Shown piece after piece: positions 17,161 to 50,431 of a stretch of 64,000 nt of DNA. Where the stretch lies: positions 119,660,001-119,724,000 of the forward strand of contig OZ024742.1 of assembly GCA_964016885.1 (NCBI GenBank), read 5' to 3'. Source of the DNA: Eledone cirrhosa (Eukaryota). Position 1 is the first letter of the stretch, and each line of letters starts with the position of its first letter. The notes under the pieces were generated by a model. That model was not told where the DNA came from. It saw only the letters and a list, made by a program, of their open reading frames with translations, and searched no databases. A program made the translations under genes and the position numbers.

Positions 17161-20100
17161 TCATCATCATCATCATCAGGTTTAGCGTCCGTGTTCCACG
17201 CTTGCATGGGTTTGGACGGGGGTTTTCCCACTTGAGGCAAGAGTGGTTGTCTTGCTCGCATAGGACTGTCTGGCGGGTTTTCTACAGTTGGATGCCCTTC
17301 CTAACACCAACCACATTTACAGTGTGGGGCTGGGAGGTTTTTACCGTGTTGCCTACACGGCCACATTACAGCGTGGACTGTCTGGCGGGTTTTCTACAGC
17401 TGGATGCCCTTCCTAACACCAACCACCTTTACAGTGTGGGGCTGGGAGGTTTTTACCGTGTTGCCTACACAGCCACATTTACAGCGTGGACTGTGTGTTT
17501 TTTGTCGTGACACCTACACGATCTCATTTGTTTCGGCCTGGATGTTGTGGGACCAACATAACTTTACATTGAAAGGGGCGGTGTGGGTGGGTGGAGGTGG
17601 TGGGACGGGGGTGTGTTTTGATAGAGATGCCTACTGACTGTAGTAGGTTTTTAGTTTGTATTTAGGTAAGGCGGGTCTTCTCTATTACTGAGTACCGCCA
17701 AAGGTCTCGGTCCAGTGACATTGTCTTGGAGAGGTGTAAGCGTGTGAGGTCGGAATTTATCAGCTCGTCCCATGTTTTTCTGGGTCTGCCTACTCCGTGG
17801 CTACCGTCTATCTTTATTGCCCTGCACTTTGTTATACAGCTGTCGTCTTTCATGCGCATCACGTGACCGTACCAACGTAGCCTTCTCTCGAGTAAACAAC
17901 ATCTGATCCCTCTTATTTCTAATTTTTTCCTTAGTTCGTTTATGCTTTGCCGTTCACGTATATTACTATTGCACATCCAGCGGAGCATGCAAGTTTCGTT
18001 CCTCTCTAGTCTGCGTATATCCTCTGCACACAATGCCCAGGTCTCACTGCCATGCAGCATTGCTGTTCGTATGCAGGCATCGTATAACCTGCCTTTCATT
18101 TTTAGGGAGAACCCTCTAGCGGCTAATAGTGGTATAAGCTCTCTGAACTTTTTCCATCCAGTTCTGACTCTAGCTACTGTACTTTCAGAGCACCCTCCCC
18201 CACTGCTGATTTTGTCACCCAGATAACGGAAGCTGTCCACTATTTCTATAGAACCCTCTGCGCAGTTGAAGGAGCTAGTATTTTGTGGGCACTTGCTGCT
18301 ACTTATTGCACCAGAGCACCGGCCACATGTAAAATCTATGTTCTTAGTTAGCTTACCTGTGATCCCACTACATCTTTTATGCACCCATACTTTGCATTTG
18401 GGACATAAAATGGAGTTTCTACCTACGCCTTTCCTACACACTGAGCATGGCCATTTCCCCGATGGGACCGCCGCCTTATTTTCTTTCCTACAAACTAGAA
18501 CTTTAGTCTTAGCCAGGTTAATTTTAAGGCCTTTTGATTCTAGGCCGTGCTTCCACGTTTGGAATTTCTTCTCTAGTTCGGTCATTGATTCAGCTATGAG
18601 CGTTAGATCATCTGCGTATAGGAGTTCCCATGGGCAGCCGGTCTTGAACTCCTCTGTTATAGCCTGAAGGGCAATAATAAATAGTAGGGGGCTAAGTACA
18701 GAGCCCTGATGGACACCAACTTTTACGCTAAACTCTTCACTATATTCGTTGTTAATTCTAACCTTATTGACTGTTTCTTTATACATGGCTTGTATAGCTC
18801 TCACAAGCCATTCGTCAACACCTAGTTTTCTAAGAGACCACCAGATAATGGAACGGGGGACTCTGTCGAAGGCTTTCTCCAAGTCGACAAAAGCTAAGTA
18901 TAGGGGTTTACTTTTAGCTAGGTACTTCTCCTGTAGTTGTCGTACAATGAAAAGAGCGTCTGTGGTACTTTTGCCTGACACAAACCCGAACTGCATTTCA
19001 TCTAGATCAATTCTCTCTCTGATTAGTTGCGCTATTACTTTTTCCGTGACCTTCATGACCTGGTCGATTAATTTAATGCCTCTATAGTTACTCCTATCTA
19101 GGGCATCTCCTTTTCCCTTATAGCAGTTAACGATGATGCTGCTACGCCATTCCTTCGGAACAACCCCATTCTGTATGACTTGGTTAACTATCCGGGTGAC
19201 CATGGTGTGTCCCACCGAACCAGATGCCTTCAGCATCTCAGCAACTATTTCCGAAGGCCCAGCCGCCTTACCCGTCTTCATATCTTTGATTGCCTTACTT
19301 ATTATACTACCTTCAACTAACACTGCTGGTCCCTCTATTGGATCGATCTGGGGGAGACTGTCTTTCTCCCATTTGTTCTCCTCATTTAGAAGCCTTTCGT
19401 AGTGACACTTCCAAGCTACCTTCTTATCAGCGTCGGTGATGGCAAGTATGCCATCATCGTTAAGTACACACTTCTCCCCGACAATATCACGGTTTTCCTT
19501 GACACATTGCCTGGCAATCCTGAACACCTCACGTTTTTGGTCCTCACGTTGTAGAACATGCTTGAACTTTCTTTCCTCTGCTTCCCTTCTTGCGAAGTAC
19601 ACTTGTCTCCTAGCTTCCCTCCTGTCCACTTGATAGTCTTCTCTACTTCCCCCATCCCGCCATACTTTCCAAGCCTGCTTTTTGGCCTTAATTGACCCCT
19701 CCACCTTACTGTTCCACCACCATGTTACTCTCCTCCTACCTACAGGCCTGCTCCAGCCACAGACTTCGTCTGCCGCCGTCAGCAGGTTTGCTCTCAGGAA
19801 TTCCCACTGTTCCTCTATATTATACGACTCTAATTGCTCTTCCTTACTGTCGAAAGCGTCAAGTAATTTGCTTTGAAATTTATTTCTGGCTATGGGGTCC
19901 TTTAGCTTCCATATTTTTCTCCTGAGGATAGTCCTCTTCCGCTGTCTAGTACGTCTCGTCCTGACTATGAGGTCGCTAATTATCAGTCTATGTTGGGAGG
20001 TGAATTCTTCATGGGGGTGGGATTTAGTGTTAACAACAGACACTCTGTCACGTCTTCTGGTAAGGATATAATCTACCTGGCTTGTGTGTTCCCCCGATCT

Positions 20101-20868
20101 ATAGGTGATCAGGTGATTGTCTCGTTTTTTGAAGTTAGTGTTACAGATAGTTAAGTTATTTGCGTCGCAGAATTCCAGGATTCTGGAGCCTTCCTCATTT
20201 CTAGTACCGAACCCATAGCCTCCATGGATTCCGTCATAGCCGTCACAATGTTGTCCAACGTGACCATTTAGGTCGCCTGCAATAACTATATAGTCACTGT
20301 CGGTTATTTGGGAGGTAGCGAGCATCAGTGTCTCGTAGAATCTGTCTTTTATAGCGCGGGGCAGTCCGGATTGGGGTGCGTACGCAGATATTACTGTCAC
20401 CGTAGTTTTATTGAGGACAAGTCTTATTTTAATTATTCTGTCGTTCACTCTATTTACGTCTATTATCTTATCTGCCCACTTTTCTGCTACCATGATTCCT
20501 ACCCCACCCAACCCATTGTCATTTCCCACCCAGAAAAGCTTATAGCATCGTTCTTTACCCACGATGAATCTAGCCGACCCTCCCCTCCACCTGGTCTCTT
20601 GAATACAACAAACATCGACCTCCTTACGTTCAAGCATTTCTACAACCTCGTTAGAGCGACCCTTTAAGGTGCCTACATTCATGGTACCAACTCTGAAGTT
20701 TTGGATTGCGTTTGGAGGGTGGGAGCGGTGGGGCGCGGGGGGGGGGGGGGTTATGTTAGCCATCCTGGGCCGAAACAAGGAGGAGTGCTTGCATTCTCGT
20801 CCACGAGGTGAATTTGGCTTTATCTTTGGCATTGTCGCTGAGCGTCCACATTTTTCTCTCTTCAACAT
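17161..20868 (-). mobile_element. RTE-clade LINE family A, near full length
   Basis: Single long ORF, ~500-nt 3' UTR with an internal ~112-bp duplication, (TGA)n tail; flanked by TA repeats. Confidence 0.97.
17662..20868 (-). CDS. RTE ORF: APE endonuclease, reverse transcriptase, PHD-like finger (start uncertain; in-frame ATGs also at 20832 and 20763)
   Basis: VGTMNVGTL, CCIQETRW, GDLNGH, SQHRL (APE); FVDLEKAFDRV, QGSVLSPLLF, YADD (RT); CSVC..CPKC..HKRC..CGRC. No internal stops. Confidence 0.95.
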   Translation of the reverse strand: MLKREKCGRSATMPKIKPNSPRGRECKHSSLFRPRMANITPPPPAPHRSHPPNAIQNFRVGTMNVGTLKGRSNEVVEMLERKEVDVCCIQETRWRGGSARFIVGKERCYKLFWVGNDNGLGGVGIMVAEKWADKIIDVNRVNDRIIKIRLVLNKTTVTVISAYAPQSGLPRAIKDRFYETLMLATSQITDSDYIVIAGDLNGHVGQHCDGYDGIHGGYGFGTRNEEGSRILEFCDANNLTICNTNFKKRDNHLITYRSGEHTSQVDYILTRRRDRVSVVNTKSHPHEEFTSQHRLIISDLIVRTRRTRQRKRTILRRKIWKLKDPIARNKFQSKLLDAFDSKEEQLESYNIEEQWEFLRANLLTAADEVCGWSRPVGRRRVTWWWNSKVEGSIKAKKQAWKVWRDGGSREDYQVDRREARRQVYFARREAEERKFKHVLQREDQKREVFRIARQCVKENRDIVGEKCVLNDDGILAITDADKKVAWKCHYERLLNEENKWEKDSLPQIDPIEGPAVLVEGSIISKAIKDMKTGKAAGPSEIVAEMLKASGSVGHTMVTRIVNQVIQNGVVPKEWRSSIIVNCYKGKGDALDRSNYRGIKLIDQVMKVTEKVIAQLIRERIDLDEMQFGFVSGKSTTDALFIVRQLQEKYLAKSKPLYLAFVDLEKAFDRVPRSIIWWSLRKLGVDEWLVRAIQAMYKETVNKVRINNEYSEEFSVKVGVHQGSVLSPLLFIIALQAITEEFKTGCPWELLYADDLTLIAESMTELEKKFQTWKHGLESKGLKINLAKTKVLVCRKENKAAVPSGKWPCSVCRKGVGRNSILCPKCKVWVHKRCSGITGKLTKNIDFTCGRCSGAISSSKCPQNTSSFNCAEGSIEIVDSFRYLGDKISSGGGCSESTVARVRTGWKKFRELIPLLAARGFSLKMKGRLYDACIRTAMLHGSETWALCAEDIRRLERNETCMLRWMCNSNIRERQSINELRKKLEIRGIRCCLLERRLRWYGHVMRMKDDSCITKCRAIKIDGSHGVGRPRKTWDELINSDLTRLHLSKTMSLDRDLWRYSVIEKTRLT

Positions 20869-31241: not shown

Positions 31242-31616
31242 AACGTCATGAAAAAAGCTACTAAGAGAAACCCTCGAAAATTTATCGCTAATACAGCAGG
31301 GAAAATTTAACGCTAATACAGCAGGGAACATCATAATATTAACGACATGAAAAAGCTACTAAGAGAAACCCTCGAAAATTTATCGCTAATACAGCAGGGA
31401 AAATTTAACGCTAATACAGCAGGGAACATCATAATATTAACGACATGAAAAAGCTACTAAGAGAAACCCTCGAAAATTTATCGCTAATACAGCAGGGAAA
31501 ATTTAACGCTAATACAGCAGGGAACATCATAATATTAACGACATGAAAAAGCTACTAAGAGAAACCCTCGAAAATTTATCGCTAATACAGCAGGGAAAAT
31601 TTAACGCTAATACAGC
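31242..31616 (+). repeat. 98-bp tandem repeat, about 3.8 copies, directly upstream of the RTE-B ORF
   Basis: aacgacatgaaaaagctactaagag... starts at 31242, 31341, 31439 and 31537. Confidence 0.95.
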
Positions 31617-34600
31617 TAAAATACACGAGCAACTCTGAATCAATAGATGAAATATGAATCTGCGAGCTACCAAGCACCCACGTGAAGCGCCAACCCAGAG
31701 ACCCTCCCCTACGAGTGTCGACAAATGCCCAAAACTCCGAGTTGGTACCATCAATGTAGGCTCAATGAAAGGAAGAGCAGGAGAAATCGTAGAAATGCTA
31801 GAGCGAAAGGAAGTTGATGTATGCTGTGTGCAAGAGACTAGATGGAGAGGAGGGTCTGCTAGAGTCCTTGTAGGAAAAAGCCAGTGCTACAAATTTTTCT
31901 GGGTGGGAAATGACGATGGGATGGGTGGTGTAGGTATACTATTAGCTGACAAGTGGGTAGATAAAGTAATCTCAGTGTACAGGGTAAATGCAAGAATCAT
32001 TAAACTCAGACTAGTCCTGAATAAGACAATTACCACAATAATATCAGCTTACGCACCCCAATCGGGGCTGCCAGACGAACTTAAGGATAGGTTTTACGAG
32101 TCCCTAATACACACTACTGCTCTAACAGACGACAAGGACTTCCTAATCATTGCAGGAGATTTTAACGGACACGTAGGTAAACACTGCGACGGCTTCAATA
32201 GAGTACATGGAGGCCATGGAGTTGGCACAAGGAATGAGGAAGGATTCAGACTTCTAGAATTCTGCGACGCCAATGACATGTCGATATGTAACACAAACTT
32301 TAAAAAACCCGACAACCACCTGATCACCTATAGATCAGGGGAGCACTCTAGTCAGTTAGATTTTATCCTCATCAGAGGACGTGACAGATGGACGGTCGTA
32401 AACACAAAAGCCTTCCCTAGTGAGGAATGTACATCCCAACATAGCTTAGTTGTCAGCGACCTCACGGTCAGAACTAGACGAGCCCTGAAACAGAGGCCAA
32501 CCTGGAGAAGAAAGATCTGGAAGCTGAAAGTCCCCTCAACCAGTAACAGATTTAAAGATATTTTACTCAACGCCTACGACAGTAAAGAAGAACAGATAGA
32601 GACATTTAACGTAGAAGAGAACTGGGAGTTCCTAAAAAATAACTTACTAGAGGCGACGGATGAGGTTTGTGGCTGGAGTAAGACCTCAAGCAGGAGGAGA
32701 GTGACTTGGTGGTGGAACAATAAGGTAGATGAAGCAGTCAAGGCCAAGAGACAGGCATGGAAAGAATGGAAGAACGGGGGGAGCAGGGTACATTACATAG
32801 AGACCAAGAGGGAAGCTAGGCGACAAGTATACTTAGCTAGGAGGGAAGGAGAGGATAGAAAATTCAAGCATGTTTTACAACGTGAGGACCAGAAACAGGA
32901 GGTATTCAAGATTGCGAGGCAGTGTGTCAGAGATAGTTGTGATGTCATTGGAGAGAAGTGTATCCGGAATGATAAAGGTGAGCTTGCCCTCACAAGTGCT
33001 GAGAAGAAAGATGCATGGAAGAGTCATTATGATAGATTACTAAATGAGGAGAATGCATGGGAAGAAGAGACCCTACCCCACGTAGACCCTATAGAGGGAC
33101 CAGCAGTACAAGTCAGCGGCAGCGTAGTAAGTAAGGCAATCAGAGATATGAAGATAGGGAAGGCAACCGGTCCATCGGGTATAGCTGCCGAGATGCTGAA
33201 GGCATCTGGGTCTGTAGGTCACACTATAACCACACGTATCGTTAACCAGGTAATACTAGAGGGGGCCATACCAAAAGATTGGTGCAGTAGCATCATTGTC
33301 AACTGCTACAAAGGTAAAGGCGATGCACTAGATAGAGGAAACTATAGAGGTATAAAGTTGATGGACCAGGTCATGAAAGTAACAGAAAGAGTTATAGCAC
33401 AGCTGATTAGGGACCGGGTGAATATAGACGAGATGCAATTTGGGTTTGTACCAGGGAAAGGCACCACTGATGCGCTCTTCCTTGTGAGGCAATTACAGGA
33501 AAAGTACCTAGCTAAAAGTAAGCCACTCTACTTGGCATTTGTCGACCTTGAGAAAGCCTTTGACAGAGTTCCACGTGCAGTAATCTGGTGGGCTCTTAGA
33601 AAACTAGGAGTAGATGAATGGCTTGTGAAAGCGGTACAAGCCATGTATAGGGGAGCAGTCAGCAAAGTTAGGATTGGCAATGAGTATAGCGAGGAATTTA
33701 GCGTACAGGTTGGGGTCCACCAGGGCTCTGTTCTTAGCCCTCTCCTGTTCATCATAGTCCTGCAGGCAATAACGGAGGAGTTTAAGACCGGATGCCCATG
33801 GGAACTCCTGTATGCTGATGACCTCGCACTCATAGCTGAATCTATGGTAGAACTAGAGAATAAATTCCAAACCTGGAAGCAGGGACTAGAGAGAAAGGGC
33901 CTCAAAGTCAACATGACAAAGACTAAGGTCCTTATAAGTAGACGAGAAAACAGAACCCAGATCCCCTCAGGGAAATGGCCTTGCTCAGTATGTAGGAAAG
34001 GTGTAGGTAGGAACTCCATTCTTTGCCCCAAATGCAAACAATGGGTACACAAGAGATGTAGCGGGATCTCAGGAAGCTTAATTAAGAATGTAGGATTCAC
34101 ATGCAGCAGCTGTGCTGAAACAGCAAGCAAACAGCCACAGGAAACAAGTACCACCAATCTCTGGGAGGGCCCTGTAGAAACAGTAGACAGCTTCTGCTAC
34201 CTAGGTGACCGAATTAGCAACGGAGGTGGGTGCTCAGAAAGTACAATAACTAGGGTAAGAACGGGATGGAAGAAGTTTAGGGAACTACTACCACTGCTAG
34301 CTGCAAAAGGCTTCTCCCTCAGAATGAAAGGCAGACTGTATGATGCGTGTATCCGAACAGCGATGTTGCATGGTAGTGAGACCTGGGCGCTGAAGGTGGA
34401 AGACTTACGTAGATTAGAGAGAAACGAAGCCTGCATGCTCCGATGGATGTGTAACAGTAATATACGTGAACGACAAAGCATAAATGAATTGAGAGAGAGA
34501 CTGAGCATAAGAGGAATCAAATGCTGCGTGCAGGAGAGGCGGTTACGCTGGTATGGACATGTGATGCGTATGAAGGATGACAGCTGCATAAAAAGGTGCA

Positions 34601-35077
34601 GAGCACTAGAAGTTGATGGAAACCGCGGAGTGGGGAGACCCAAGATGACTTGGGATGAGGTGATAAAAGCCGACCTTACCCAACTACACCTCTCAAAGTC
34701 AATGACACACGACCGTGACTTCTGGCGTCACGCAGTAATACAGGGTACCCGACCTCCCATGGGTACATGCTGAAGCATATAAACAATATGCCCCCCCCCC
34801 CACCGCAAGGTGGTCGTGGAGGTGCCACGGCAAAAAAGCACCCAGCCCACACTGTAAAGTGGACGTGTAGGCGCCACGAAAAAGCACCCACCACTCACTG
34901 TAAATGAGGTTGGTGTTAGGAAGGGCATCCAGCTGTAGAAATCAAGCCAGATCAGTTCCTGTATGAGCAAGGCATGGTCAGCCGACCAGACACTGCCCAC
35001 AACAGGACAACCCGTCTAACCCATGCTAGCGTGGAAGAACGGACGTAAAACGGTGATGATGATGATGATGATGATGA
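31617..35077 (+). mobile_element. RTE-clade LINE family B, apparently full-length ORF (5' end may extend to 31078)
   Basis: Intact ORF, ~300-nt 3' UTR, tail ggacgtaaaacggtgatgatg. Confidence 0.97.
31654..34773 (+). CDS. RTE ORF: APE endonuclease, RT, PHD-like finger (1039 aa)
   Basis: VGTINVGSM, QETRW, GDFNGH, SQHSL, DLEKAFD, YADD, CSVC..CPKC..HKRC..CSSC. Confidence 0.96.
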   Translation: MNLRATKHPREAPTQRPSPTSVDKCPKLRVGTINVGSMKGRAGEIVEMLERKEVDVCCVQETRWRGGSARVLVGKSQCYKFFWVGNDDGMGGVGILLADKWVDKVISVYRVNARIIKLRLVLNKTITTIISAYAPQSGLPDELKDRFYESLIHTTALTDDKDFLIIAGDFNGHVGKHCDGFNRVHGGHGVGTRNEEGFRLLEFCDANDMSICNTNFKKPDNHLITYRSGEHSSQLDFILIRGRDRWTVVNTKAFPSEECTSQHSLVVSDLTVRTRRALKQRPTWRRKIWKLKVPSTSNRFKDILLNAYDSKEEQIETFNVEENWEFLKNNLLEATDEVCGWSKTSSRRRVTWWWNNKVDEAVKAKRQAWKEWKNGGSRVHYIETKREARRQVYLARREGEDRKFKHVLQREDQKQEVFKIARQCVRDSCDVIGEKCIRNDKGELALTSAEKKDAWKSHYDRLLNEENAWEEETLPHVDPIEGPAVQVSGSVVSKAIRDMKIGKATGPSGIAAEMLKASGSVGHTITTRIVNQVILEGAIPKDWCSSIIVNCYKGKGDALDRGNYRGIKLMDQVMKVTERVIAQLIRDRVNIDEMQFGFVPGKGTTDALFLVRQLQEKYLAKSKPLYLAFVDLEKAFDRVPRAVIWWALRKLGVDEWLVKAVQAMYRGAVSKVRIGNEYSEEFSVQVGVHQGSVLSPLLFIIVLQAITEEFKTGCPWELLYADDLALIAESMVELENKFQTWKQGLERKGLKVNMTKTKVLISRRENRTQIPSGKWPCSVCRKGVGRNSILCPKCKQWVHKRCSGISGSLIKNVGFTCSSCAETASKQPQETSTTNLWEGPVETVDSFCYLGDRISNGGGCSESTITRVRTGWKKFRELLPLLAAKGFSLRMKGRLYDACIRTAMLHGSETWALKVEDLRRLERNEACMLRWMCNSNIRERQSINELRERLSIRGIKCCVQERRLRWYGHVMRMKDDSCIKRCRALEVDGNRGVGRPKMTWDEVIKADLTQLHLSKSMTHDRDFWRHAVIQGTRPPMGTC

Positions 35078-35090
35078 TATATATATATAG

Positions 35091-50100: not shown

Positions 50101-50431
50101 TCGCAGAGGCACCTCCCCATCTCACCTCTTGCACGCAGCACACATCCACCTGCCTTCTCTCCAGCATCTCCGCTATTTCAGCAGATCTACCTCTGAGAGT
50201 GCCAACATTAAGTGTTGCAACTCTGAGATGCGACGTCTTCATATTTTTCTATGCTGTTTTGTTGCTGTGCTGATAAGCTTTTTGGCATTGATACACTGGT
50301 TGGATGCCCTTCCTAACACCAGCGCCACTTTACAGCATGGACTGGGTGCTTTTATTTGTGCCACCAGCACTAGAGAGGATGTCTTACTAGACTCAAGGGC
50401 CCTCTCTACACTTCCATTTTACAGCATGGTC

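Follow-up and report, generated by a model that had tools for sequence, protein, structure and literature searches.

The window (the whole 64,000-nt stretch of Eledone cirrhosa DNA that we analysed) carries a LINE copy that is about 99% identical to 20 other copies, and that represents the youngest subfamily, A1, of a family that we call A (Table 1). Its single open reading frame, 1056 aa when counted from a conserved AUG, encodes an AP endonuclease and, next in order, a reverse transcriptase (RT; Pfam PF03372/PF14529, then PF00078); a PHD finger comes straight behind the RT domain, at ORF residues 796-839 (window about 18315-18447). The RTE label was given by an earlier, sequence-only reading and is consistent with this anatomy: one ORF with the endonuclease ahead of the RT, a (GAT)n microsatellite as 3' tail, and many truncated copies are all features of the RTE clade. 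Another RTE-clade element with a complete ORF, RTE-2_OV from a cephalopod, Octopus, is described in the accessible part of its report as encoding 1109 aa with a C2H2 finger and having a microsatellite-rich 3' UTR (PMC9115989); compared by description, it thus differs from the present element in ORF length and in the type of finger.

Table 1. Features of the LINE copy, in window coordinates
Feature	Position	Strand	Remarks
RTE-type LINE, youngest subfamily A1, 5'-truncated copy	17161..20866	-	set in AT/CA microsatellite
Single open ORF, 1056 aa from conserved AUG	17662..20832	-	AP endonuclease, reverse transcriptase, PHD finger
AUG of MPKIK, candidate start codon	20830..20832	-	kept in A1-A5; probable start
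AUG of MANIT, inside duplex	20761..20763	-	lost in subfamily A2
5' arm	20750..20778	-	codons 19-28 from conserved AUG, LFRPRMANIT; 3-bp extension to 20782
3' arm, in 3' UTR	17528..17562	-	7-nt bulge 17545-17551
112-bp tandem duplication, 3' UTR	17263..17479	-	one conserved UTR motif per copy
(GAT)n microsatellite tail	17161..17177	-	

A search of the same genome with the 5' region of the element gave 1604 candidates, of which the best 40 were scored and 20 fetched, and further subfamilies were reached by walking outward from divergent copies. Subfamilies A2 and A3 diverge from A1 by 4.5%, A5 by 7.5% and A4 by 11%, while families B, C and D are more distant (65-77%). Chimeric copies (L138, L164 and L169) join different subfamilies or families, either a B body with an A5 3' end or an A5 5' end with an A4 or A1/A3 body, and show that template switching or recombination is frequent. 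The copy in the window has its 5' end at about 20866; fuller copies extend at least 250 nt further upstream and then run into tandem monomers of about 203 bp, which are present in variable number and form the A1 5' UTR upstream of the ORF (L021-L037). Family B has monomers of its own, and the promoters of mouse L1 are likewise built of tandem monomers. In the family B copy of the window (31450-31620) the 5' monomers are inverted relative to other B copies, likely through a 5' inversion at integration. At the other end of the element, the 112-bp duplication, which is absent from A2-A5, gives A1 two copies of a conserved UTR motif (window 17263-17479, 34814-35087 and 50299-50353). Families A, B and D have this motif in the 3' UTR, family C in the 5' UTR, a placement that looks like the capture of a bipartite tail; no match was made between this motif and the domain described by Kojima in the accessible part of PMC5786205.

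Two segments of the element, one early in the ORF and one in the 3' UTR, are inverted repeats of each other. They had been reported from the sequence alone at 20750-20782 and 17523-17562, with about 27 bp, and we found both arms in these places and throughout the family. Read on the sense strand, 11 bp (20778-20768 with 17528-17538) are followed by a 2x1 loop, 5 bp (20765-20761 with 17540-17544), the 7-nt bulge and a further 11 bp that include two G-U pairs (20760-20750 with 17552-17562), giving 27 bp in total (11+5+11) and a predicted -37.0 kcal/mol, besides the 3-bp outer extension. The arms are 3.2 kb apart in the sense RNA, the 3' arm lying 100 nt past the stop codon and about 350 nt ahead of the (GAT)n tail. 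With these distances, and with at least 250 nt plus monomers upstream of the truncation point, neither arm is terminal, and the circularising panhandle first proposed for them is not supported as a terminal one.

The 5' arm is present in 20/20 young copies chosen by the 5' region and the 3' arm in 19/20, the remaining copy ending at the end of its contig. A one-off 5' inversion or template jump, which the sequence-only reading had named as an outcome that would undo its case, was rejected on the presence of the arm in all young copies. Its description of a highly variable bulge between largely constant paired blocks was borne out as to the bulge: six other copies in the window extend to the arm, and the majority of their changes are located within the bulge or next to it, but three paired positions are also altered, each in single copies. 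Across the family, the register is maintained despite variation in the bulge and in the 2-nt loop. The two G-U pairs that had been taken to mark the sense strand are indeed there, but carry little weight as an argument, with the antisense duplex almost equally stable (-35.1 vs -37.0 kcal/mol).

By energy this is the strongest 40-nt long-range duplex of the element. However, an equal or better 40-nt duplex with its sides at least 200 nt apart arose in 119/587 block-dinucleotide shuffles of the whole element, so that the stability is within chance at this scale, and energy alone leaves chance open. When only the leader and the 3' UTR were paired, a restriction made after the fact, 12/2000 shuffles were as good as A1 (1/200 in a second test), and shuffles matched single A4 or A5 copies in 92/200 (L135), 129/200 (L088) and 31/200 (L100) cases; by this measure A1 stands out, and A2, A4 and one of the two A5 copies do not. 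In a gapped pairing score between the halves of the element, the arms rank below the top match, which was itself exceeded in 13/300 shuffles. Minimum-energy folds of the near-full RNA hold the helix in five of six copies (the window copy, L003, L050, L071 and L146, but not L172), and two-block co-folding in 3/12, every one of them A1. If the 5' arm is paired with the conserved UTR motif instead, the predicted duplexes are weak (-14 and -12 kcal/mol).

The real support for the putative pairing is covariation, not energy. The compensatory changes that the sequence-only reading proposed to seek by aligning family A copies are present between A4 and A1, which differ by 11% substitutions and nevertheless share register, bulge and loop. 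Two pairs changed on both sides, G-C to A-U at 20776/17530 and C-G to A-U at 20769/17537, and both G-U pairs turned Watson-Crick, G-U to A-U at 20760/17552 and U-G to C-G at 20758/17554; on the side of losses, A4 has one broken and one gapped pair and lacks the outer 5 bp. The outcome was Watson-Crick in 4/5 changed pairs, compared with 55/636 in controls, for which we took 153 further long-range helices predicted for the same copy of A1 and scored them identically against A4. None of the 153 reached four Watson-Crick outcomes and one had two double changes, although one control helix showed three double changes once G-U was allowed. Simulation with the observed substitution counts gave p = 4.5e-5 to 1.3e-4, the range being set by third-position weighting. 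The compensatory double changes therefore go beyond the controls, on a count of two such changes in one genome. A5 vs A1 taken alone is unexceptional, with a Watson-Crick outcome in 1/3 changed pairs, matched by 34/153 controls.

Among 54 copies with both arms, the 20776/17530 pair is G-C in 27, A-T in 23, A.C in one chimera (L169) and mis-aligned in three. The change counts as one event on the tree, both sides having changed between A5 and A1-3, that is on the branch to A1-3, because A5 shares the A-U. Copies L169 and L164 were considered as point-mutation intermediates and rejected, their windowed identities marking them as chimeras, and for this reason we do not say which way the A4 branch changed. 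It was in A1 that the helix was noticed, and we therefore left gains on one side only, along the path leading to A1, out of the evidence. One rearranged copy (L054) was excluded from the comparison of copies, and another (L008) is without its 3' end. Away from the path to A1, further G-U to Watson-Crick changes occur in both A3 copies (2/2) and in 6/19 A1 loci. Since the two sides changed together between subfamilies, the arms likely pair in RNA. Parts of the family occur in 20 sequencing runs from 16 studies, none of them listed as RNA; three runs (X5, X6 and X10), compared with L160 in the 3' arm only and with coordinates mapped by hand, have A1/A2-type letters there.

The duplex is not equally intact everywhere. 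In the large subfamily A2, nearly all of the 16 copies read carry two uncompensated A.C mismatches, and there are two mismatches in A5 and a single one in A3. Within A4, a sub-lineage of at least 40 copies has lost the entire 3' arm by deletion: all of the best 40 scored matches (40/40) span the junction at 93-100%, the deletion is visible in 7/8 fetched copies, and four arm-less A4 copies still reach the 5' arm (L091, L096, L098 and L203). Searches of families B, C and D found no such arm and no equivalent helix, the D copies being old, and in family B, which is very young and has many copies, pairing of the leader with the 3' UTR gave no substitute (135/200 shuffles as good). The arm-less sub-lineage has spread, which argues against a helix required for replication and is compatible with mobilisation in trans. 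From these comparisons the duplex appears dispensable and lineage-specific, with no general RTE rule behind it, and the required switch or cis-preference device proposed at first is not sustained. It should be mentioned that one internally deleted A5 copy (L160) has kept both arms, 600 nt apart, and that a single low-depth contig (run X10; L160:3260 and 3745) connects sequence flanking one arm to sequence flanking the other, on opposite strands. As these flanks are both low-complexity, the contig is possibly an artefact.

On balance we lean, with little more than even confidence, towards the two segments forming a selected but dispensable and lineage-specific long-range RNA helix that would close only on ribosome-free RNA. 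The main challenge to this comes from chance: a complementarity could have arisen by accident in an RNA of 3.7 kb and have been singled out for being strongest in the youngest subfamily, and the double changes could be luck. One shuffle in five equals the energy, active lineages break or delete the duplex, a control helix can show three double changes if G-U is admitted, and one-sided gains toward A1 are to be expected from the way in which the helix was found, which is why they were left out of the count. The A4 comparison, however, played no part in choosing the helix, and there none of the controls did as well (p about 1e-4); moreover, both G-U pairs turned Watson-Crick more than once. We therefore regard chance as an unlikely explanation.

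The arms might instead pair in the first-strand cDNA or in an integration intermediate, where templated repair would copy patches of the 5' arm into the 3' arm and mimic compensation without selection on RNA. The near-equal stability of the antisense duplex (-35.1 kcal/mol) would suit this, as would the abundance of recombinant copies; between A5 and A1, the paired part of the 3' arm differs by three point changes, each of which matches the 5' arm, and so does a 5-nt indel relative to A4. A point against the favoured RNA helix is that, over the subfamilies, A.C is found as often as G-U, so that the strand is not fixed. Repair of this kind sits poorly with a 7-nt bulge and a 2x1 loop that were never erased over 11% divergence and with mismatches that last through whole subfamilies, and the A4 letters that give Watson-Crick pairs against a shared 3' arm sit on the 5' side, singly. 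It seems to us improbable.

The position of the 5' arm relative to the start of translation bears on the original idea that the duplex covers a start codon. The AUG of MANIT does lie within the duplex (20763-20761), as had been said, but it is absent from 16/16 A2 5' arms read (ACG in 15, GCG in one), and 69 nt upstream of it another AUG (20832-20830, opening MPKIK, MSQIK or MSKIK) is conserved in A1-A5; in families D and B, too, an AUG stands at a similar distance from the start of the endonuclease. Given that this AUG is conserved and that of MANIT is lost in A2, translation likely starts at 20832 and the 5' arm would lie inside the ORF. The A1 frame stays open upstream of MANIT, past MPKIK and MMDGL, with two more in-frame AUGs above the conserved one, and many A3, A4 and A5 copies have in-frame stops upstream. 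The idea of a panhandle that masks the start codon and thereby shuts off translation or enforces cis preference can draw on the paired state of the MANIT AUG in A1, A3, A4 and A5 and on its possible use as a secondary start by leaky scanning, but with that codon missing throughout the A2 arms, other in-frame AUGs above it, arms that are not terminal and arm-less lineages that spread, we consider it very improbable. Just past the 5' arm, a poly-C run (20740-20749) is of variable length and causes a frameshift in 4/20 young copies (L004, L005, L006 and L007), separating the N-terminal segment from the endonuclease; this variation would reflect slippage or assembly error.

The arms themselves are likely of different age. 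Family D has a homologous 5' segment (SSLFQP) without a partner, its 3' UTR containing only plain tandem units of about 49 nt, and the A-family 3' arm, aligned by eye, resembles a degenerate copy of such a unit. The 5' arm would therefore likely be older coding sequence, to which a repeat unit of the 3' UTR was later fitted by reshaping and so became the 3' arm. A simple inverted duplication as origin is disfavoured by the same two observations, the unpartnered coding homologue in D and the by-eye alignment of the 3' arm to the repeat unit.

Based on these comparisons we can offer a rough proposal for how the favoured RNA helix might work. It would loop out the ORF and stay closed only while no ribosome crosses codons 19-28; elongating ribosomes would open it, and it would re-form once they clear. 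By its antiparallel geometry, the re-formed helix would set the 3' UTR, with the conserved UTR motif and the tail, beside the start-codon region, and by analogy with viral cyclisation sequences in coding regions the RNA might then be biased towards a compact, untranslated template state. Such a helix would tune retrotransposition rather than enable it. Flavivirus cyclisation sequences and the 3' translation enhancers of plant viruses pair with the 5' region, and as in our element a short long-range helix joins early coding sequence to the 3' UTR and brings the ends together; the viral helices are essential and genus-wide, whereas the LINE helix is confined to one lineage and dispensable, and its function is putative. 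In a more ambitious version, which we put forward only tentatively and hold to be doubtful, a virus-like cyclisation helix would have evolved from a spare 3' UTR repeat, would sense ribosome traffic and would switch the RNA between mRNA and reverse-transcription template, re-docking by the start codon a UTR motif that is 5' in other RTEs, with the stepwise build-up and loss recorded in the subfamily series.

Both ends of RTE elements have drawn attention before. RTE-derived bipartite non-autonomous elements keep part of the 5' UTR and a 3' part (Kojima, 2018, PMC5786205; Kojima, 2020, PMC7245038), a retention that suggests that both ends matter, and the RTE-clade LINEs and derivatives covered there resemble the present element in their single EN-RT ORF and microsatellite tail. 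In the accessible parts of these two reports it is the retention of sequence that is described, not pairing between the parts, and the 5' partner in our element is coding sequence. For R2 and L1Tc, 5' RNA structures or HDV-like ribozymes near the element start have been proposed to govern translation, and the R2 protein binds both RNA ends (PMC6765202, accessible part); these are local folds or protein bridges, in contrast to the base-paired link over 3 kb that is predicted here. An Rfam search of five loci gave no ribozyme, the only matches being microsatellite-driven and below the gathering scores. We found no description of 5'-3' base pairing in the RNA of RTE or other LINEs in a literature search that covered mostly titles and abstract openings, with subscription journals and patents outside its scope, nor is such a helix described in the accessible parts of PMC5786205, PMC7245038, PMC6007223, PMC13708176, PMC13282606, PMC9115989 and PMC6765202.

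The putative helix bears on the split of a LINE RNA, with one ORF and no poly(A) tail, between translation and reverse transcription, as well as on why RTE-derived elements retain both 5' and 3' parts. The genome offers natural strong, weakened and deleted alleles of a helix supported by covariation, which make this split directly testable. The helix would also matter for template design in RTE-based gene insertion, in which the payload is placed between the cognate 5' and 3' UTRs (PMC13708176, accessible part).

Finally, two other long-range pairings were seen in the element. The start of the RT region (19215-19275) can pair with the last ORF codons (17660-17705), the predicted energy being -42 kcal/mol for A1, -44 for a single A4 copy and -33 for B; in A5/A4 this second helix shows a double change from U-A to C-G as well as a G-U that is A-U, and it is among the best-retained of the control helices. 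Inside the ORF, 20628-20650 and 19551-19570 show near-perfect complementarity over 19 bp (-36 kcal/mol), with 26/27 pairs unchanged in A4 and no double change, a conservation that may come from protein constraint.
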